DNA from: an uncultured delta proteobacterium
GTDB taxonomy: Bacteria; Desulfobacterota; Binatia; Binatales; Binataceae
DNA: 64,000 nucleotides
Assembly: GCA_963808235.1 (NCBI GenBank)
Contig: CAWEEQ010000004.1
Location: 1,088,001 to 1,152,000 of the forward strand
Direction: 5' to 3'
This document shows positions 5,547-46,587 of the stretch, one piece after another. The translations under genes and the position numbers were made by a program. The notes beneath the pieces are model-generated. The model saw only the letters and a program-made list of their open reading frames with translations, was not told the DNA's origin and ran no database searches. How positions within the stretch are numbered: the first letter of the stretch is position 1; every line of letters starts with the position of its first letter.

Positions 5547-7364
5547 TTACCGGCCGGCTGCGATTCGGCCTTCTGATGGGCCGGCGTTGAGTGCCGCGAG
5601 GATTTTCTTGCGCCGCTCCGTCAATTCTTTCGGCATCGTCGGACCGATCTTTTCGAAAAACTCCGCCGCCGATTCGAGCTCCGCGGTCCATTCCTCGGGA
5701 CGCACTGCGAGCGCTTCTCCCGCACCGCCTTGGGCGCCAGGTCGAGGCCCTTCAGATCGAGGTCAGCTTCGTTGGGCACGATTCCGACCGGCGTCTCGCG
5801 TCCGCCCGCGCGTCCATGGATTCGATCGAGCATCCACTTCAGCACGCGCAGATTTTCGCCATAACCCGGCCAGATGAAATTGCCGTCCGCGCCTTTGCGA
5901 AACCAATTAACCATGAAGATGCGCGGTGGCTTTTTGATCGCAGGCGCGCATCTTGAGCCAATGCGCGAAATAGTCGCCGATGTTGTAGCCGCAGAACGGG
6001 AGCATCGCCATCGGATCGCGGCGCAGCACGCCGACCGCTCCTGAAGCCGCCGCGGTCGTTTCGGAACCCATCGTCGCGCCCATGAAAACGCCCTGCGCCC
6101 AGTCCGTCGACTCGAGTACCAGCGGCACCGTCGAGGCGCGCCGCCCGCCGAAGATGATCGCCGAAATCGGCACACCCTTAGGTTCGTCGGCAGCCGGTGA
6201 CCATGCGGGATTGTTGCGCATCGGAGTCGTGAAGCGGCTATTCGGATGCGCCGCCTTGTCCTTCGACGTTTTGCTCCACGGGCGCCCCTGCCAATCGAGC
6301 ATCCCGTCGACTGCGGGCACGTCCATCCCTTCCCACCACACATCGCCGTCAGCAGTCATCGCGACGTTGGTGAAAATCGAATCGTGCTCGACCATCTTCA
6401 TCGCGTTCAGATTCGATTTCGCGCTGGTTCCTGGCGCCACGCCGAAGTATCCATTTTCCGGATTGATCGCCCACAGACCGCCGTCAGGCCCGACCTTCAG
6501 CCACGCAATATCGTCGCCGACCGTGAAGACCTTCCATCCTTTGAGCTCGGCCGGCGGGGTCAGCATCGCAAGATTGGTCTTGCCGCATGCGCTCGGAAAA
6601 GCCGCCGCGACATAAGTGGTCTCGCCCTCAGGACTTTGCAGGCCGAGGATCAGCATGTGCTCCGCGAGCCATCCCTCGTCGCGTCCGAGCGCACTTGCGA
6701 TTCGAAGCGCGAAACATTTCTTGCTCAGCAGAGCATTGCCGCCGTAGCCGCTGCCCACCGAGATGATCGTATTGTCTTTTGGAAAATGGCAAATCAGCCG
6801 CCGCTCCGGATTCAGGTCGAGCGTGCAATGAATTCCGCGATTGAAATTATTTGACTCGCCGAGTTGCGCGAGCGCCGCGGAGCCCATCCGCGTCATGATT
6901 CGCATGTTCAGCACAACATAGATGCTGTCGGTCAGCTCCACGCCGACCTTCGAGAACGGCGACCCGATCGGGCCCATCACGTACGGCACCACGTACATCG
7001 TGCGCCCGCGCATCGATCCGTCGAGCCATCCACGCAGCTTCGCGTAAGTTTCTTTGGGGTCGGACCAGTTGTTGGTAGGGCCCGCTTCTTCGCGAGTTTC
7101 GGTGCATACGAACGTCAGTTGCTCGGTGCGCGCGACGTCGTTCGGGTTCGATCGATGCAGATAACAGCCGGGACGTTTCGTTTGGTTGAGCGGAATCAGA
7201 ATCCCGGCATCGACAGCTTGCTGCGTCAGGCGATTTCGCTCGGCCTCGGACCCGTCACACCAGACGACGGCATCGGGCCGGGTGAGGAGCGCGACTTCGC
7301 TTACCCAATCGTTGAGCGCTCGGCTGGCTGTCGGAGAATTGTTCTTTTCGGGATTCGGCGTCAC
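5547..7364 (-). CDS. pckG: phosphoenolpyruvate carboxykinase (GTP), two frameshifts (~5945 and ~5715)
   Basis: [42 protein letters not shown]...WPGYGEN.RVLKW; GTG start with GGAG RBS; stop TAA at 5547-5549. Confidence 0.95.
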
Positions 7365-7520
7365 TTCGATTCGCTCCACTTGTGCCTCTATTGTAATTAT
7401 TAGCAACCACACGGCAACCAATCTCGGATCGTAATATCTAGATTAGCAGATCGGAAGAATCAAGGGGACTATTATAAGCGGTTCTTCACGGCCCGAGCGC
7501 ATCAAAAAGCGCCTCGGCAG

Positions 7521-7550
7521 AAAAAAACGCCCCGGAATTACCCGAGGCGT
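7521..7550 (-). terminator. intrinsic terminator of the ferritin-like operon
   Basis: Minus strand reads acgcctcgggtaattccggggcg followed by a T run, just after the stop of 7583..8353. Confidence 0.65.
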
Positions 7551-7582
7551 CTCAAAGAGATCGCGATTTGAAACGGCGCCGA

Positions 7583-8353
7583 TCAGTAAGCCGCGCTCTT
7601 GCGCGCCGATTCAATCAGCCGCTGGATCTCTTCTTCGGTGAATCCCGCCAGCATCCGCGCCTCTTTCGCAATCGACACGACTTGTCCGTCGTCGTTCTCG
7701 ATATCTTCCTGCGCGCGCCGTCCGCCGCGGAAGTTGAAGACCGAATCGACCATCTCCTGGAACTCTTGCGCTTTTTTGAGCCGCTCGGGGTCGCCCTCGG
7801 TCAACTTGCGCATCCACTTCGAGCCCATCCGGACGTGAGTGATCTCGTCTGCGAGTACGTAATCCACCGAGCGCTCGATCACTTCGTCGCCGTTGCGCTG
7901 CGCGATCCGAATCAGCTGATCGAAGACGTCGCACGCAAGTCCCTCGAGTCCGCGATTTATTCCGGCGACTCGCGCCGCGGGATCCATCGCCTGGGTGCAT
8001 CGCCACAAAATTTCCGTCTCGACGTAGTCGCCCGGATGCCCTCCCATGTACTCGACCAGGCGCTGGAAAATCTCGCTGTGGCGCGCTTCGTCCCATACCT
8101 GGCGCGCCATGTCGAGCTGGAATTCCCACGGCGCGTCGGGAAAATCGAACAGCGTGCGTCCGGCCGCCTCCATCGCCTGCAACTCGCCGGTGTAAATCCC
8201 ATGCAGGCGCGAGCGCAGCGTTTCCTCGTCGAAGGGCAGGGGACGTCCACCGTCGAGTCCCTGCTCTTCGCGGATTTCGCGGACTTGGCGGCTGCGCATC
8301 ACGACCCAATTGTCGGGCCGCGCGAGGCGATCAACTGGAATGCACTTCTGCAT
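7583..8353 (-). CDS. ferritin-like diiron protein (DUF455-like), paralog 2
   Basis: Carboxylate diiron pattern: GELQAME, DEARH, LEGLACD, DEITH. Confidence 0.8.
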   Translation of the reverse strand: MQKCIPVDRLARPDNWVVMRSRQVREIREEQGLDGGRPLPFDEETLRSRLHGIYTGELQAMEAAGRTLFDFPDAPWEFQLDMARQVWDEARHSEIFQRLVEYMGGHPGDYVETEILWRCTQAMDPAARVAGINRGLEGLACDVFDQLIRIAQRNGDEVIERSVDYVLADEITHVRMGSKWMRKLTEGDPERLKKAQEFQEMVDSVFNFRGGRRAQEDIENDDGQVVSIAKEARMLAGFTEEEIQRLIESARKSAAY

Positions 8354-8378
8354 AATTCATTTCCTCTGATTCGACGCT

Positions 8379-9179
8379 CTAGTATGCCGAGCTTTTGCCG
8401 AAGCCTTTGACGAGCCGGTCGATCTCTTCTTCGGTGAAGCCCGCGAGCAGACGCGCCTCGCGCGCAATCGTGATACCCGAGTCGATTTCGATTTCCTTAT
8501 CGCCGACGCGCTGCTTGATTTGCCCGGCCTGCTCGACAAAGGTGCGGCCGCCGCCGAAGTTGAAAAGATCGTCGATGCTGTTCTGGAAGTCCTGCGCCTT
8601 TTTGAAACGCTCGGGGTCGCCTTCGGTGAGCTGGCGCATCCATTTCGAGCCCATCCGCACGTGCGTGATTTCGTCGGCCAGCACGTAATCCACCGAGCGT
8701 TCGATAATCGGATCGCCCATCTTCTGCGCAAGCCGGATCAGCTGCTCGAAGACGTCGCACGCGAGCCCTTCGAGTCCGCGATTTATTCCCGCCACTCGCG
8801 CCGCCGGATCCTCGGCCTGCGTGCAAGACCACAATACTTCGCCCTCGGGAAATTCGCCGTAGTAGGACCCGACGTATTCGAGCAGCTTCAAATAAATCTC
8901 CGCGTGGCGCGATTCGTCCCACACCTGGCGCGCCATGTCGAGCTGGAATTCCCACGGTGCGTCGGGAAAATCGTAGAGCGTGCGCCCGGCCGCTTCCATC
9001 GCCTGGAACTCGCCGGCGCAGATTCCGTGCAGGCGCGATTTCAGGAAATCCTCCTCGTACGGCATCGCGTTGGCTGCCGCGAGTCCCTGTTCGGTGCGTG
9101 CGTTTCGCAATCGCTGCGCCGGCAGCAGAACGTGGTCCTCGGGCCGCGCGAGTTTGTCGACGGAAATCATTCGCTGCAT
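8379..9179 (-). CDS. ferritin-like diiron protein (DUF455-like), paralog 1
   Basis: GEFQAME, DESRH, LEGLACD, DEITH; long identical stretches shared with 7583..8353. Confidence 0.8.
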   Translation of the reverse strand: MQRMISVDKLARPEDHVLLPAQRLRNARTEQGLAAANAMPYEEDFLKSRLHGICAGEFQAMEAAGRTLYDFPDAPWEFQLDMARQVWDESRHAEIYLKLLEYVGSYYGEFPEGEVLWSCTQAEDPAARVAGINRGLEGLACDVFEQLIRLAQKMGDPIIERSVDYVLADEITHVRMGSKWMRQLTEGDPERFKKAQDFQNSIDDLFNFGGGRTFVEQAGQIKQRVGDKEIEIDSGITIAREARLLAGFTEEEIDRLVKGFGKSSAY

Positions 9180-9194
9180 GATGATGACGCTCCT

Positions 9195-9581
9195 CTACTT
9201 GGTCCAGGCCGATCGCCGGCCGGTCAAATTCAAAACTTCACGCACCGTCCATCTGCCGGCTTCTTCGCCGAGCCGAAATTGAATTGTGAACGGCTCAACG
9301 TCACTGCCGCTTAAGCGCGCCTTCAAAAAATAATGCTTGGCGACGCGTCCGCGCCCGAGCAGCTCGAACTTATCATAGGCGCCCGGCTTGAGCGCACTCG
9401 TGATTCGCGCGATATCCTCGCGCGCTTGCGCAGTCGTCATGCCTTCGACCGCCGCCAGATCGCCGCGCATCATCGCGGTCAGTAGCTGTCCCGCCGCGGC
9501 GAGCATCGCGGCCGGCGGCTCGACTACTTTGCCGATCGGCTGCGGCCCCATCACGTTGCCGCGATCTCCAAGGTCAGGCAT
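9195..9581 (-). CDS. small hypothetical protein (possible NTF2/cystatin-like fold)
   Basis: ATG overlaps the upstream stop; helix-GD-helix, then beta strands ending RWTVREVLNLTGRRSAW. Confidence 0.65.
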   Translation of the reverse strand: MPDLGDRGNVMGPQPIGKVVEPPAAMLAAAGQLLTAMMRGDLAAVEGMTTAQAREDIARITSALKPGAYDKFELLGRGRVAKHYFLKARLSGSDVEPFTIQFRLGEEAGRWTVREVLNLTGRRSAWTK

Positions 9582-9970
9582 TGCCATTCTCCGCACGCAC
9601 TTGCGCGGCCGCGGCCGCAAGCGTGGGCACGTCGCTCCACGGCGAGCGCTTGTTGGTCGTGTCCTCGACGCCCGCGATCATCCATGTGCCGCCGGCATCT
9701 TTGCGCCATCGATAGAGCACGCGCCGATGCGCCCCCGTGCCAACGATCCTCAGCTTCGAGATATATTGTCCGCCGATCTTCGCGAGCGCCAGCGTCTCGA
9801 CCGCGAGCGGCTTTTGCAGTCGTGCGATCTCCGCCGCAGCTCTGTCGATACGCATCGATTGCATCGCGATGCGCATATTTCTCGGCCCCGCCGATATCGC
9901 CGTCGGCAATCGCCTTCGCATGCGCCGCGATCGTCTCGCGCAATTCCGTCGTGTCGTAGGGTTGCTTCAT
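9574..9970 (-). CDS. small hypothetical protein, paralog of 9195..9581, frameshifted near 9848
   Basis: N-terminus in ORF 9551..9970 and C-terminus in ORF 9574..9921 (TWMIAGVEDTTNKRSPW). Confidence 0.6.
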
Positions 9971-9982
9971 TGGATTCGTAAC

Positions 9983-10603
9983 TTAGCTCCGTCCAACTTT
10001 CCGGCGCGGTTCCGGTGCATCAGTTTCAAAGCCGGTCACTCCGCCCGAAGCGCCGAGCAGACCTTCCAGATGCGATTGCCACTCGGAGGCCCTCCGATGC
10101 TTCTCCTTCGAATCGAGCAACTCCTCCAGCAGCACGTTGCCTCGCTCGACGTGTCCTTTCTCTTCTTCGACCAGCCGCTCCAGGATTCTGAGCGTCGGCG
10201 GCTCGTACACGGGATTCATCGCCGACACGTGAGAGCTGTAATGAGAAATCAGATGCGGCTTCAGCACGCGGTAGATTCCGACCAGCCGCTCGATCGTGTC
10301 CTCCCACTCCTCCTTGTCCTCGATAGCGTTCATGAATGTGACGAACGCTTCGTTAGGCGGCTTGGAGACCTGCGGCTGCGCGCGCAGCTCTGGGAGCCGC
10401 TTTCCGAGCGCGTCGGTATGGAGCGCGTCGTCATACACCTGCTTCGCCATCTCGAGCTTGACCGCGAGTTCCGGCGTCAGCGCGATCCAGCCGGCCATCA
10501 TGCGCATCATCCGTTCTTCGGCGTAGCGGTAATTTTGAATATAGATGACGCTCTGGCGGACGCTGTAAACGCCCTCGAGAGTTCGCCGATCGTATAGTGC
10601 CAT
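9983..10603 (-). CDS. ferritin-like protein with a degenerate metal site
   Basis: YAEE, DDALH, EEEKGH; AGGAG RBS. Confidence 0.7.
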   Translation of the reverse strand: MALYDRRTLEGVYSVRQSVIYIQNYRYAEERMMRMMAGWIALTPELAVKLEMAKQVYDDALHTDALGKRLPELRAQPQVSKPPNEAFVTFMNAIEDKEEWEDTIERLVGIYRVLKPHLISHYSSHVSAMNPVYEPPTLRILERLVEEEKGHVERGNVLLEELLDSKEKHRRASEWQSHLEGLLGASGGVTGFETDAPEPRRKVGRS

Positions 10604-10645
10604 GCCCACGACTCCTGCTTTCGATTTCGCGATAGCGCTCGAGTG

Positions 10646-11314
10646 TCAGCGCCCCAATGGCACGGGCGTCCCTGCCCGTGATCCGTTCCCGAAAAAACGT
10701 CCTTCGACGATCGCCGCAATCTCGCGCCAGTAAGTTTCCTTGTCGGTGCCTTTGAGATTGTTCGCGCCCATCGCCCATCCCGCGCACAACATATGAATCG
10801 CATGGACCGCGCTGCGCGCATCTTCAAAATGAATCTCGCCCATTTGCTTTCCGCGCTCGATAATCTCCGCGACCGCGCCCAGGTAGTCGCGGCCGATCTT
10901 CTTCATCGCGGTGCGATACTGCGCGCGGCGCTCCAGGTAGCGCGCCTCATGATGCAACACATTGAACGCCTCGCGGTATTTGTCGATCACGTCCAGGATC
11001 GCGCGCATCACGTCGATAAGCTCGCGACGCGGGTCGCCCGCAGTGCGCGCGCGAATCGCCGGCAGCATCTCGACAAACTCGGCCACCATCGACTCCGCGA
11101 TCAGCGGAATGATCTCGTCCTTGCTGTCGAGATAAAGATAGATCGAACCCGCGGCGAGCCCCGCCTCGAGCGCAAGCTCCTTGACCGAGGCCTCGTGAAA
11201 CGACTTGCGCGCCAGCACCCGGCAAGCAGCCAGAAAAATCTGCCGCCGCCGCGCCTTGACGAGTTTCCCGTCATCCTGCGCGGGCGTCCGTATAGCTTCA
11301 GCAGTTCGCGCCAT
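10646..11314 (-). CDS. TetR/AcrR family transcriptional regulator
   Basis: N-terminal HTH: RRRQIFLAA...ASVKELALEAGLAAGSIYLYLDSKDEI. Confidence 0.92.
   Translation of the reverse strand: MARTAEAIRTPAQDDGKLVKARRRQIFLAACRVLARKSFHEASVKELALEAGLAAGSIYLYLDSKDEIIPLIAESMVAEFVEMLPAIRARTAGDPRRELIDVMRAILDVIDKYREAFNVLHHEARYLERRAQYRTAMKKIGRDYLGAVAEIIERGKQMGEIHFEDARSAVHAIHMLCAGWAMGANNLKGTDKETYWREIAAIVEGRFFGNGSRAGTPVPLGR
10658..10682. repeat. REP-like palindrome family A (TGGCACGGGCGTCCCTGCCCGTGAT), copy inside the tetR 3' end
   Basis: Identical to the copies at 41002-41026 and 41197-41221. Confidence 0.85.
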
Positions 11315-11370
11315 CGTAAGTGGTAGAGGCCGATCGCCAAGCGCTCGTCCTCAGTCCCTCAAATCTACTG

Positions 11371-11384
11371 AATGAACGTTCATT
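11371..11384. promoter_or_regulatory. putative TetR operator
   Basis: Perfect 14-bp palindrome AATGAACGTTCATT about 57 bp upstream of the tetR start. Confidence 0.6.
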
Positions 11385-11478
11385 TGTCCAGAGGCTTGCC
11401 TCTCCCGCCGGGAGAGGCAAGATTCCCTCTTCACACAACCTTCTAACAGGCGCTCCGCGCCGCATCCTCTTCCTGAAT

Positions 11479-11535
11479 ACTGGGTGCAGGGGTCACCCCT
11501 GCCGAAGGAAGTGTGAAACCCACCGCGGGTTTCAC
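11479..11535. repeat. REP-like family B (ACTGGGTGCAGGGGTCACCCCTGCCG plus a GAAACCC..GGGTTTC hairpin)
   Basis: 26-bp exact match at 46470-46495, also followed by a similar hairpin at 46551-46573. Confidence 0.8.
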
Positions 11536-11608
11536 ATTAAATCAAGTTGTCCCATTCCCTCTCTCCTGCGTTTCTCCCCCGCCGCATCCTTCTTATATGC
11601 TCACCGCT

Positions 11609-12055
11609 ATGCCCGAGAATTTCCAAAAAGAGAGCACTCTCGATCGATTCTTCAACCGCCTGATGGGCCGCCTGCTGCGCCTCGGATTCGCCCCCGGATA
11701 CATGCGACTGCTCGAAGTCCGCGGCAGAAAATCCGGCAAGCTCTTCACCACCCCGGTTAACCTGCTCGAATTCAACGGACGCCGCATCCTCGTCGCCGCT
11801 CGCGGTGAGACCGCATGGGCTCGCAATGCGCGCGCGGCCGGCCGCGTCACTCTCCGCCGCGGCGCCAGTGCTGAATCGCTCACGGTGCGCGAACTCGCCG
11901 ACGCCGACAAGCCCGAAGTCATCAAGGCGTTCCTCGATCGCTTCGCGTCGCAAGTCCAGCGCTTTTTCGAGGTGAAGGCAGGTTCCCCCGCCGCCGATTT
12001 TCGCGCGGTCTGCTCGCGCACTCCGGTATTTGAACTAGTCGCCGACTCCTCCTAA
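11609..12055 (+). CDS. nitroreductase family deazaflavin (F420)-dependent oxidoreductase (DDN-like)
   Basis: LLEVRGRKSGKLFTTPV, W.RNARA.G.V, PVFEL. Confidence 0.85.
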   Translation: MPENFQKESTLDRFFNRLMGRLLRLGFAPGYMRLLEVRGRKSGKLFTTPVNLLEFNGRRILVAARGETAWARNARAAGRVTLRRGASAESLTVRELADADKPEVIKAFLDRFASQVQRFFEVKAGSPAADFRAVCSRTPVFELVADSS

Positions 12056-12058
12056 TAG

Positions 12059-12110
12059 CCTCTCCCTGACAGGGAGAGGTCGCCGCTCGTCTTCGAGCGG
12101 CGGGTGAGGG
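12059..12110. repeat. REP-like family C (CCTCTCCC..GGGAGAGG..GGGTGAGGG double hairpin)
   Basis: Related copies at 11395-11421, 33320-33362 and 43936-43986. Confidence 0.7.
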
Positions 12111-12159
12111 TCCAAATTCCAAATTCCGCGCAAAGCCCGAAGTCACGAAAAGCTCTCTG

Positions 12160-13464
12160 ATGCCAGAAAACCCCGCGCCCGGCACTTCCGACGATCCCAA
12201 TTACGCGATCGCCGCCGCAAAGCGTGAGCGCGCGACGATGCTCGCGTTACTCGCGATGCTCTTCTACCAGGGCTTCGCTGTCTCCATCGACGCGATCGCC
12301 GCAACCTGGATCGGCAAAAGCTTCAACCTCGACGGCGCCGGAATCGCCCGCCTGTTCGCGTGGATTTCCGTCTCGTCTCTCGGTGCGCTCGCGCTCTCCC
12401 GCATGATCGATCGATTCGGCCGCCGCCGCATGATCCTGTGGTGCATCGCCGCGATGCCGCTATGCAGCCTCGCCTCCGCCGCCGCGACCAACCTGATCGT
12501 CTTCACCTCGTTCCAAATCGCACTCTTCGCGTTCGTCGGCGCCGCCGGCGCGGGATGCATCGTGATGCTCTCCGAGGAACTCCCGATCGCACGCCGCGCA
12601 CAGGGGCAAAGCTTCGGCGGGCTGGCAGCCTCGATAGGAGCCGGAGTCTGCGTATTCCTGATGCCGATCTTCGTCGCCTACGGATGGTCGTGGCGATGGA
12701 TGTTCGTCATCTCCGCTGCGGGAATCGCGATGCTTCCCGCGATGGCCCGCCTGCTGCCCGAGAGCGAGCGATGGGAGCGTTCAGACGCCGCGGGTCACAC
12801 CAGCCGCACGAACTTTTACGACGTCTTTCAGCCGCTTTACCGCAAACGATCGATCACGATGATCCTATGCTCGCTGGCCGCCGCGATCTCGACCACCGCC
12901 GCCAACGCATTCGGCTACTACCACGCGGTTTCGGTGGTAGGCCTGTCAGCAGCAGCTACTAGCACTATGACGATCGTAGCAGGCGGAATAGCCTTGGCAG
13001 GTTTTCCACTAGGCGCATGGACCGCGGAAAGATTCGGCCGCGTGCCGACGGTAGTCAGCTTCGGCATCTTAATCACCGCCGGCCACCTATGGTTCTACTG
13101 GGGACCGCCAACACACTTCGCGTGGCCGCTGATGTGGCTGGCGACCGGCTACTTCTGGTTCAACCTATGCGACAACGGCGCAACGGTAGCGAGTAACGCC
13201 GCCGCCACGGAGCTATTTCCAACCGCACTAAGAGGCACGATGATAGGATGGTTCGCACTGGTAGGTGCCATAGGCGCCATATTATCCAACGCAGCAGTAG
13301 CTATGCTGGCCAACGCGGTGGGCGGTCTATCGATCGTAGTAGGCGCGCTATCTATAGTGGGAATCCCCGCAGCAATCCTGTTCGGCATGGTGATCGAAGA
13401 AACCCGCGGCCTAACCTTAGAGATGGCCTCCAAAGAATCCGAGTTCCACCCCCCAGAACAATAA
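12160..13464 (+). CDS. MFS transporter
   Basis: About 12 hydrophobic segments; IDRFGRRR and AERFGR loop motifs; ELFPTALRG. Confidence 0.92.
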   Translation: MPENPAPGTSDDPNYAIAAAKRERATMLALLAMLFYQGFAVSIDAIAATWIGKSFNLDGAGIARLFAWISVSSLGALALSRMIDRFGRRRMILWCIAAMPLCSLASAAATNLIVFTSFQIALFAFVGAAGAGCIVMLSEELPIARRAQGQSFGGLAASIGAGVCVFLMPIFVAYGWSWRWMFVISAAGIAMLPAMARLLPESERWERSDAAGHTSRTNFYDVFQPLYRKRSITMILCSLAAAISTTAANAFGYYHAVSVVGLSAAATSTMTIVAGGIALAGFPLGAWTAERFGRVPTVVSFGILITAGHLWFYWGPPTHFAWPLMWLATGYFWFNLCDNGATVASNAAATELFPTALRGTMIGWFALVGAIGAILSNAAVAMLANAVGGLSIVVGALSIVGIPAAILFGMVIEETRGLTLEMASKESEFHPPEQ

Positions 13465-13504
13465 CGATTTTCGCGTCACTTTGAGAGTTTGTGTCGCTCT
13501 GAGT

Positions 13505-13930
13505 TTGTCGCGTCATTCTGAGTCTTTGTGTCATTCTGGAGTCTTTGTGTCATTCTGAGCAAAGCGAAGAATCCCGGATCTTTCTCAACGTCGATCACCA
13601 CCACACCTAGCGAACGTCAACCGCCACCTCCTAACCGACAACCATAACGCGATTGTTCCCCTTCCCACATGGGAAGGGGATTAGGGGTTGGGTTCCGCGC
13701 CTCGCTCTTTGTGTCATCCCGAGCGTAGCCGAGGGACCCCGAATCTTTCTCGGCTCGGATACGTTCACCTCAGCTTAGGGCTCGCGGAGCCGACTCGCTT
13801 TGAAACTAATTTGAATTGTGTAATCCCGAGCGCAGTCTGCTAAGTCGAGAAAGCAAACTACGATTGTTCCGCTTCTCTCGAGGGAAGGGGTTAGGGGTTA
13901 GGCTCCGCGCCTCGCCCTTCGGGGTGAGGG
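13505..13930. repeat. cluster of REP-like elements and short tandem repeats
   Basis: About three ~19-bp tandem units (tctttgt)gtcattctg(g)ag; TGTCATYCYGAGC..AGC elements at ~13548, ~13712 and ~13817; family D hairpins at 13648-13705 and 13860-13916. Confidence 0.75.
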
Positions 13931-13970
13931 CGCACCCATCCAACTCGATGACGAAAAACCTCACCGCACC

Positions 13971-14534
13971 TCACTCTACACCGCTCGGCGCAGTCGCGGT
14001 CGATGTCGCAGAGGACACAGGGGTTGCGAGGCCTGCCGGAGTGGGGCTCGCCGATGGAACCGGCGTGGACGCGAGAGTCGCCGCCGGCGATGGACTCGCG
14101 GCCTCCGGCGATGGCGTCGGGGTTGGGGTTGCGGACGCCGATGCACTCTGCGGGGTCACGCTCAACAGCGCATCATTCTGGTAGCAGAACCATACCTGCT
14201 TCTTTTCGTTTCTGGTGACGGACTCGGTGGGCGACAGGACGATCTCTGCCAGTCCTATCGTGAAAACATCGGCGGCGAGTTCGGCCACCGCGATTGGCGC
14301 CTTGCCCGCATAGCCGTAGCCGGTGATGTAAAGCAGGTACAAATCGCAGCTCGTGCCGCCGGCGCCGATGCTGGTGGTAACGGGCGTACCCAGCTGATCC
14401 GTGACCGACGCTCGGCTGTCACCGGGATTGAACTTCTGCAGATCGATAGGTGATGGACGCGTCGCCTCCATGTATACGGAGCATCCGGAGAGCACGCACA
14501 AGAGCAGGACGATGTACTTGAGACGCAAACCCAT
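13971..14534 (-). CDS. putative lipoprotein with a Pro/Ala/Ser/Thr-rich tail
   Basis: Signal peptide with lipobox LSGC. Confidence 0.75.
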   Translation of the reverse strand: MGLRLKYIVLLLCVLSGCSVYMEATRPSPIDLQKFNPGDSRASVTDQLGTPVTTSIGAGGTSCDLYLLYITGYGYAGKAPIAVAELAADVFTIGLAEIVLSPTESVTRNEKKQVWFCYQNDALLSVTPQSASASATPTPTPSPEAASPSPAATLASTPVPSASPTPAGLATPVSSATSTATAPSGVE

Positions 14535-46393: not shown

Positions 46394-46587
46394 CCCTCGC
46401 CCACGAGGGCTAATCTTTCGACACGCCGAAAGCAAAAGACCGTCCGCGGGATTTTGCGATTGAATGGACACTGGGTGCAGGGGTCACCCCTGCCGCCCCG
46501 CGCGCAGCGGTCCTGAATCTCGACTTCTCTTCCGCTGAGCCGGCCCCGAACCGAAACCCAGCGTGGGTTTCGGCTATCCTGCGGCTT

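Follow-up and report, generated by a model that had tools for sequence, protein, structure and literature searches.

The hydroxylases of the multicomponent monooxygenases are (alpha-beta-gamma)2 assemblies, in which alpha is the catalytic ferritin-like subunit, beta a degenerate homologous subunit and gamma a small one. In the PaaABC(D)E system, a ferritin-like subunit with a full metal site is likewise joined by a homolog that has lost its site and by small accessory subunits, and the substrate is a coenzyme A (CoA) thioester. NTF2 folds habitually hold hydrophobic ligands, and in the Rieske ring-hydroxylating dioxygenases an NTF2-fold beta is the non-catalytic small subunit of a multi-subunit oxygenase. 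The cyanobacterial aldehyde-deformylating oxygenase draws on a general ferredoxin. BioE, a ferritin-like diiron oxygenase cleaving acyl-CoA/ACP (ACP, acyl carrier protein), is presented in the available part of its description as a two-gene bioE-bioL module under a ligand-dependent repressor, with no reductase gene named there (PMC12704756). Here we describe an operon on the minus strand of a 64-kb stretch of contig CAWEEQ010000004.1 (the window), from an uncultured member of the Binataceae. Its six co-oriented genes (7583-11314) lie in the order TetR, X, s1, s2, Da and Db, i.e., a regulator, a degenerate ferritin-like protein, two small proteins and two ferritin-like paralogs.

We suggest, with a probability of roughly 0.55, that the operon encodes a new hetero-oligomeric, multi-subunit diiron-carboxylate enzyme of an uncharacterised family, under the control of a FadR-like TetR regulator. 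The view that the genes form a conserved multi-subunit system of ferritin-like type, controlled by a repressor and belonging to a family that is uncharacterised, is well supported. The sequences are best read as those of a diiron oxygenase, and it is the ligand set and the nearest folds that point to O2-dependent oxidation. As a set, the proteins appear to be of the multi-subunit ferritin-fold metalloenzyme kind, and their unusual feature would be the NTF2-fold subunits. A preliminary description of the operon had proposed an uncharacterised hetero-oligomeric diiron enzyme induced through TetR. This stands in part, namely for the conserved unit, the lack of a characterised match, the association of the proteins and the operator; iron, O2 chemistry, substrate class, TetR ligand and repression are what we infer. 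That description had also listed six tightly spaced genes ending in one terminator, a perfect 14-bp palindrome upstream, two close paralogs with the full E..ExxH..E..ExxH set and a third ferritin-like gene with a degraded site, all of which was borne out.

The likeness to PaaABC and to the soluble monooxygenases had been recognised before, together with the impression that the sequences fall outside these families, and both observations hold. The PaaAC and PaaABC structures 3pvr and 4iit are the top structural matches of Da (template modelling score, TM, ~0.5; E ~2e-3), and one public source labels X homologs as 'phenylacetyl-CoA epoxidase catalytic subunit'. However, none of the five proteins matched PF05138 or PaaB in Pfam or NCBIfam at E <= 0.1. 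A PaaE-type reductase is not encoded either, as scans of the six genes and of the two divergent neighbours turned up neither a reductase nor a ferredoxin domain; the lack of such a gene, noted earlier, is thus real in the operon scan. The locus also differs from PaaABC in that its small subunits have the NTF2 fold, in that there are two catalytic paralogs and not one, and in that no other paa genes are present. The multicomponent monooxygenases share the design of catalytic, degenerate and small subunits, but the subunits of the operon are much smaller. No window protein matched PF02332 (Phenol_Hydrox), for which sub-threshold matches occur only in the X domains of fused relatives, and no gene for an MmoB/DmpM effector, a Rieske ferredoxin or a reductase was found.

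Among the simpler systems, the aldehyde-deformylating oxygenase is one of the top structural matches of Da. Both this enzyme and BioE, the latter compared by description only, are single-subunit or homodimeric and have neither a degenerate partner nor NTF2 subunits, and the BioE repressor is of the MocR type. In the Rieske dioxygenases the NTF2-fold subunit is paired not with a ferritin-like bundle but with an alpha subunit of the Rieske/mononuclear-iron kind, and no sequence similarity between s1 or s2 and the Rieske dioxygenase beta was detected (no Pfam match). Searches of Pfam, NCBIfam, the PDB (by sequence and by structure) and the literature returned no characterised complex that matches the set, as the preliminary description had expected.

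Da and Db, which the preliminary description had left without a family, are members of the Pfam family DUF455 (PF04305), scoring 105.1 and 93.6 bits against a gathering cut-off of 34.3. They are 65% identical to each other, and no NCBIfam model names either. Both carry the ligand residues E57, E62, E89xxH92, E137 and E170xxH173. The 71 Da and 67 Db orthologs show no variation at ten residues (E57, E62, D88, E89, R91, H92, E137, D169, E170 and H173), and with distant fused forms included (88 aligned sequences) the same ten are still conserved to 90% or more. The AlphaFold2 model of Da, with a predicted local distance difference test (pLDDT) of 84.5 and a predicted TM score (pTM) of 0.83, shows a long bundle of helices to which an N-terminal arm and a C-terminal hairpin are added. 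Da and Db therefore combine a four-helix bundle with the E...ExxH...E...ExxH pattern, on the basis of the motif in both proteins and the model of Da. A Foldseek search of this model against the PDB recovered ferritin-like proteins only (PaaC/PaaA, bacterioferritin and aldehyde-deformylating oxygenase; TM ~0.45-0.52), with no match at E <= 1e-3.

DUF455 is listed in Pfam without a function, and a multi-gene system with X and NTF2 partners was not found in the literature. Full-text searches, with subscription journals outside their coverage, found no paper that characterises DUF455 or reports this gene set, and, among the papers listed, none that brings NTF2-like proteins together with diiron or ferritin-like terms. 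The sole functional context found is the mention of a lanthanum-induced DUF455 protein of Methylobacillus in the accessible portion of one paper (PMC9988556); an excerpt of another mentions the family in passing (PMC4520260). In a plasmid collection X had no match, and Da matched 16 distant single DUF455 genes. One of these, on the Geobacillus conjugative plasmid pGS18 (L081, NC_010420.1, 5476-6609), encodes a 377-aa 'DUF455 family protein' between transposase genes. The match to Da covers its C-terminal half only, and it may be a two-domain form. The region was set aside as a functional clue because the transposase flanks are uninformative.

X is a more distant relative. It scores 17.4 bits against DUF455, under the cut-off of 34.3, and is therefore a distant homolog and not a member; with BLASTP it aligns to Da over 158 residues at 24% identity (E = 7e-10). 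What is left of the active site is a DDALH motif, with Lys115 in place of the third Glu. All 78 orthologs have E29, H62, K115, E148 and H151, and at position 59, which opens the first ExxH, 60 of them carry Asp and 18 carry Cys. In distant X relatives only E29, W39 and K49 are kept, besides several non-ligand positions. At 90% identity the X family falls into 1890 clusters, and at 50% it has 844 representatives; the named homologs of X and of s2 are Candidatus Binataceae or Binatus.

The two small proteins had been described as paralogous open reading frames (ORFs) of ~130 aa. The paralogy is confirmed (24% identity over 84 residues, E = 6e-6), but s1 is split by a frameshift that had been overlooked. 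As assembled, s1 spans two frames, with ORFs of 139 aa and 115 aa, and judged against the intact 131-aa ortholog L001:918-1310 there is one extra base near 9838-9842, i.e., a +1-nt frameshift. The two frames are one base apart; one begins MKQPYDTTELRE, and the other ends with the motif TWMIAGVEDTTNKRSPW. The frameshift is either an assembly indel or strain-specific. The homologs of s2 are 128 aa long and form a small family (160 clusters at E <= 1e-3), whose orthologs share the N-terminal peptide GxRxNVMGPQP. Neither s1 nor s2 matches a Pfam or NCBIfam family, and the Atlas gives for s2 a lead to DUF4864 with a score of 0.90. The AlphaFold2 model of s2 (pLDDT 87.2) has three helices on a curved sheet of four long strands, which is the alpha+beta cone of the NTF2-like fold. 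Foldseek returned 19 PDB matches to it at E <= 1e-3, the best being 3fka (TM 0.60-0.63); among the matches listed most are NTF2-like or ketosteroid-isomerase-like, and the few exceptions include a penicillin-binding protein and a protein of the cystatin fold. As a paralog of s2, and on that ground only, s1 may be placed in the NTF2-like superfamily.

Physical association of these proteins is suggested first of all by gene fusions in other lineages. Domain orders were scored with hidden Markov models (HMMs) built from the loci, in the best 150 of the 844 X-family representatives. X alone is found in 98, many of them fragments, while X followed by DUF455 occurs in 38 (37 plain and one with a split match), X followed by an s1-like domain in 13 and DUF455 followed by X in one. 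The Pfam DUF455 model was recovered in the C-terminal half of all 14 long proteins tested, 13 of them over the cut-off and the last, P0322, at 31.3 bits. In P0244 the C-terminal domain has 39% identity to s1 (E = 6e-11) and none that could be seen to s2. The fused protein P0255 has 457 relatives at E <= 1e-3; the few that carry names belong to Chloroflexia, Chloroflexota, Thermomicrobiales and Syntrophorhabdaceae, to which Atlas leads add Bacillota, Actinomycetota and Verrucomicrobiota. The fusions tie X to the DUF455 subunit and X to s1, and, as far as sequences can tell, they support a physical association independently of the gene order in the window.

Some long proteins in the X-only group were rejected as fusions, since they are probably chimeric gene calls (TetR_C+X, X+glycosidase and PGM+X). 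Four of the long proteins (P0357, P0370, P0373 and P0388) consist of an X fragment with biotin carboxylase pieces (Biotin_carb_N, CPSase_L_D2); they are probably read-through calls and were not counted. If they are, an acyl-CoA carboxylase gene adjoins X in some lineage.

The complex modelling that had been proposed as a check was carried out with the chains X, Da and s2 only, s2 being the partner, and points in the same direction. The complex scores 0.83, the best control 0.36. In the benchmark, 116 of 157 solved complexes attained this mark, as did 2 of 215 mismatched pairs, a calibration that holds only roughly for custom alignments and three chains. The runs agree in at least 76% of the contacts, with a partner pLDDT of at least 83. 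Nearly all confident contacts of s2 are to Da, whose residues 7-44 and 101-114 face the sheet, the N-terminal peptide and the C-terminus of s2. The model thus supports a binding of s2 to Da, as a prediction.

Whether the genes are co-conserved elsewhere had been named as a test of the proposal, and they are. A scan with one genome per species gave 251 confirmed loci, and the counts below use the best 80, all from Binataceae-like metagenome-assembled genomes in which X is 73-96% identical. Gene content was counted in the 67 loci with at least 750 nt upstream and at least 3000 nt downstream, leaving out 13 with short flanks. TetR, X, s1, s2 and two DUF455 genes occur in the order of the window in 56 of the 67. 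No s1 match at E <= 1e-5 was obtained in four loci, one of which, L070, has a diverged s1-like ORF that can be seen by eye. Three loci have one DUF455 gene (L037 and L042, of Db type only, and L041, which is riddled with frameshifts and gives fragmented matches), and one has no TetR match. A reduced cluster of X, s2 and one DUF455 gene, lacking TetR, s1 and the second DUF455, is present in three (L025:7001-8843, L027:7001-8840 and L032:3783-5634). The neighbours of the L025 cluster (a split major facilitator superfamily (MFS) gene, an adenylate cyclase domain, a BNR repeat and a helix-turn-helix (HTH) protein) give no functional clue.

The regulator belongs to the TetR family, with 38 bits to PF00440 (cut-off 24) and 31 bits to TetR_C_24 (PF17932; cut-off 26.4). 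Its nearest solved chains are 5gp9, 3whb ('fatty acid metabolism regulator protein') and 1vi0, matched at E ~5e-10 over both the HTH and the ligand domains. The best NCBIfam model is that of the Bacillus-type FadR (NF053878), at 60.5 bits against an equivalog cut-off of 200 bits. The only promoter-like site upstream of the operon is TGGACA-17-TAGATT (11390-11362), and the palindrome AATGAACGTTCATT fills 14 of its 17 spacer bases. This is the sole site with two mismatches or fewer in the window, where shuffled sequences give a mean of 0.07. In 68 loci with a usable TetR start, the palindrome was sought within 150 nt upstream of that start; it is perfect in 59, and has one mismatch in three, two in three and four to six in three. 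In ten aligned upstream regions, TTGACA/TGGACA, the palindrome and CAGTAGAT make up the only strongly conserved block. Taken together, the sequences support the view that the palindrome behaves as a conserved operator within the promoter.

Bacillus FadR (YsiA), an acyl-CoA-responsive TetR repressor, is thus the nearest solved relative, and its operator has similar half-sites. According to an excerpt of the published work, the B. halodurans FadR operator is GATGAATGAATACTCATTCAT, which shares the half-sites AATGAA/TTCATT with the palindrome (PMC5397183). The two also differ. The Bacillus site is a 21-bp pseudo-palindrome bound by two dimers, whereas the site here is a perfect palindrome of 14 bp, and no beta-oxidation genes are under TetR control in this operon.

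From these results the following picture can be drawn. The operon would encode one hetero-oligomeric machine on the ferritin-like four-helix bundle. Da and Db would be its metal-binding catalytic subunits, with a carboxylate-bridged dinuclear site that is most likely diiron, and X a homologous subunit with a partly dismantled site, most likely a structural or regulatory partner. The accessory subunits s1 and s2 would have the NTF2 fold; s1 would pair with X, and s2 would dock on the DUF455 subunit at its N-terminal arm and the 101-114 loop. The FadR-like TetR would bind the palindrome in the promoter spacer and repress its own operon until a small ligand releases it; this ligand would most likely be lipid-like and might be an acyl-CoA. 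This guess rests on the resemblance to FadR, on the shared FadR half-sites and on the hydrophobic ligands of NTF2 folds; the CoA-thioester substrate of PaaABC fits a FadR-like regulator as well. With the FadR score so far under its cut-off, the acyl-CoA idea is only a lead. The enzyme itself would probably activate O2 and oxidise a hydrophobic substrate, with electrons from a general cellular donor.

Several results weigh against this proposal. No reductase, ferredoxin or effector gene lies within the operon; this is not decisive, since for the bioE-bioL module, too, no reductase is named in the available text (PMC12704756). The FadR model is matched far under its equivalog cut-off, and the ligand motif of Da and Db is shared by ferritin-like proteins that are not oxygenases, ferroxidases and rubrerythrins among them. 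The top PDB profile match is a bacterioferritin (E = 3.4e-5). For the complex, there is the rough calibration given above, and s2 with Da replaced still scores 0.36. The reduced clusters exist, and therefore not all five proteins are obligatory, and s1 is frameshifted in the window itself. Finally, the gene downstream of the operon, which we take by eye from its translation to encode phosphoenolpyruvate carboxykinase (PEPCK), is present in 53 of the 67 loci and has no evident link to the other genes. Because it is linked as well, and because all 80 loci are from Binataceae, part of the synteny reflects shared ancestry.

The bacterioferritin match leads to the first alternative, an iron-handling or oxidative-stress system, in which the ferritin-like proteins would form a hetero-oligomeric ferroxidase, a mini-ferritin or a rubrerythrin-like peroxidase and the NTF2 proteins would serve as scaffolds. 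We regard this as unlikely. Sequence and profile searches of the PDB gave weak matches only, to bacterioferritin, a VlmB homolog, R2-like oxidases and desaturases. The best profile matches are bacterioferritins, which are also among the top structural matches, and they span only ~36-39 residues in one helix region. Some X homologs are named 'YciE' by one public source. The accessible part of a preprint (bioRxiv 10.1101/2025.09.13.676036) describes as ferroxidases proteins with two ferritin-like domains, of which one has the better-conserved site. However, the regulator is a FadR-like TetR and not an iron or peroxide sensor, and no window protein matches PF00210 or the rubrerythrin models at E <= 0.1. 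The ferritin-like window proteins (206-266 aa) thus fall outside the Ferritin/bacterioferritin/Dps family (PF00210), whose cage subunits have ~150-180 aa, and Da and Db, with 256-266 aa, carry extra N- and C-terminal elements compared with cage subunits of 150-170 aa. The published double ferritins, compared by description only, are derived from Ferritin/Dps and bind heme through a conserved Met (same preprint, in part); with this origin, a length of ~290 aa and the heme-binding Met, they were set aside as an identity for the X-DUF455 fusions.

A small-molecule N-oxygenase or a tailoring oxidase of secondary metabolism (AurF, CmlI or VlmB-like), instead of an enzyme acting on lipids or acyl-thioesters, is quite improbable. 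Db has a match to AurF (E = 0.0023; 17.6 bits, cut-off 29.6), and the DUF455 profile weakly matches the structure 6d9f, a 'putative VlmB homolog' (E = 7e-5); VlmB is a diiron-dependent oxygenase in azoxy formation, according to the available portion of PMC11705231. These matches are all under the family thresholds, however, the neighbours of the operon (an F420H2-quinone-reductase-like gene, an MFS transporter, PEPCK and what we likewise take by eye to be FtsZ) have no biosynthetic look, and the place of the cluster is fixed over the 80 Binataceae loci.

That the genes are neighbours by descent only, their products acting separately and the fusions and the model being misleading, is equally improbable: all loci do come from one family, PEPCK is nearly as linked as the operon genes and the complex tool passed 7 of 44 blindly chosen neighbours in its own test, but two independent kinds of fusion occur in other phyla, s1 and s2 show the geometry of translational coupling, the five proteins fall into only two families, each with paralogs in the cluster, and the complex score is well over its controls.

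The multi-subunit diiron enzyme suggested here would bear on a family that is widespread in bacteria and eukaryotes and carries a textbook diiron motif, and for which Pfam lists no function. The operon and its fused relatives give DUF455 defined partners, namely a degenerate paralog and NTF2-fold subunits, and in addition a conserved operator and a plausible class of inducer. They also provide an entry point to what DUF455 does. If the enzyme is indeed an oxygenase, it would represent a new subunit architecture for diiron enzymology, and it may then account for one of the oxidations by which the uncultured Binataceae, which are abundant in soil, metabolise lipids or hydrocarbons. More tentatively, and with some doubt, it can be speculated that DUF455, X and NTF2 subunits constitute a new class of multi-component diiron oxygenases in which the NTF2 subunit holds a hydrophobic (acyl) substrate or delivers it to the metal site. 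Such a class, most of whose members would be two-domain fusions, would be spread over Binatota, Chloroflexota, Actinomycetota and Bacillota, and its chemistry and architecture would lie outside those of Paa, the bacterial multicomponent monooxygenases, the desaturases, aldehyde-deformylating oxygenase and BioE.

Table 1. Genes and signals of the operon, in positions of the window.
Feature	Position	Strand	Description
TetR regulator	10646-11314	-	222 aa, FadR-like
X, degenerate ferritin-like protein	9983-10603	-	206 aa, distant DUF455 homolog
s1, small protein	9574-9970	-	~132 aa if read through; frameshifted in this assembly
s2, small NTF2-fold protein	9195-9581	-	128 aa
Da, DUF455 ferritin-like protein	8379-9179	-	266 aa, full diiron-type ligand set
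Db, DUF455 paralog	7583-8353	-	256 aa, full ligand set
Intrinsic-terminator-like hairpin (13 bp), then U-run	7518-7553	-	
Sigma-70-type promoter-like site	11362-11390	-	-35 TGGACA 11390-11385, 17-nt spacer, -10 TAGATT 11367-11362
Candidate TetR operator, perfect 14-bp palindrome AATGAACGTTCATT	11371-11384	.	inside promoter spacer

The genes are tightly spaced, with gaps from -8 to 42 nt: 42 nt between TetR and X, 12 nt between X and s1, 15 nt between s2 and Da and 25 nt between Da and Db. The junction of s1 and s2 is an 8-nt start-stop overlap, ATGCCTGA, the geometry of translational coupling. For X, a start at ATG 10603 is likelier than one at GTG 10609 because its homologs are 205-206 aa long. 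The hairpin with its UUUUUUU run lies 29 nt past the Db stop. A stretch of 74 nt around it folds with -28.5 kcal/mol (z = -1.94; 9 of 200 shuffles are equally stable), and a consensus terminator scan did not detect the hairpin downstream of Db. A search of Rfam over 7000-14000 gave nothing at the gathering level, its one match being sX6 with 17.5 bits against a threshold of 40.

The PEPCK gene, of the GTP-dependent type, lies downstream of the operon (5621-7421, minus strand) and is broken into two overlapping ORFs (504 and 240 aa). Relative to the L001 gene, whose ORF of 605 aa is intact, one extra base is present near 5944 and two are present near 5720. A frameshift is met here a second time within 4 kb, which suggests that this assembly contains indel errors.

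On the other side, two genes diverge from the operon. According to Pfam and NCBIfam, 11513-12055 (plus strand) encodes an F420H2-dependent quinone-reductase-like protein of the deazaflavin-dependent nitroreductase family and 12160-13464 (plus strand) an MFS transporter. In the 59 loci with at least 6.8 kb upstream, the quinone-reductase-like gene is found in 43, less than 500 nt away in 21, and the MFS gene in 30. The linkage of both to the operon is loose, and a function as electron donor would be only a possibility.

The window also holds two copies of a hairpin-forming element with the core ACTGGGTGCAGGGGTCACCCCTGCCG (11482-11503 and 46473-46494), where none is expected by chance. It recurs, sometimes inverted, between genes of related loci, in the upstream regions of L003, L010, L014, L022, L026 and L029. 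The element has no Rfam match, and in appearance it is either a repetitive extragenic palindromic (REP)-like repeat or a hairpin with a regulatory role. Upstream of the operon in the window, a perfect inverted repeat with 13-nt arms and 1 nt between them lies at 11395-11421, and another, with the 10-nt arms TGTGAAACCC/GGGTTTCACA and 5 nt between them, lies at 11512-11536 and is kept in most of the aligned loci.

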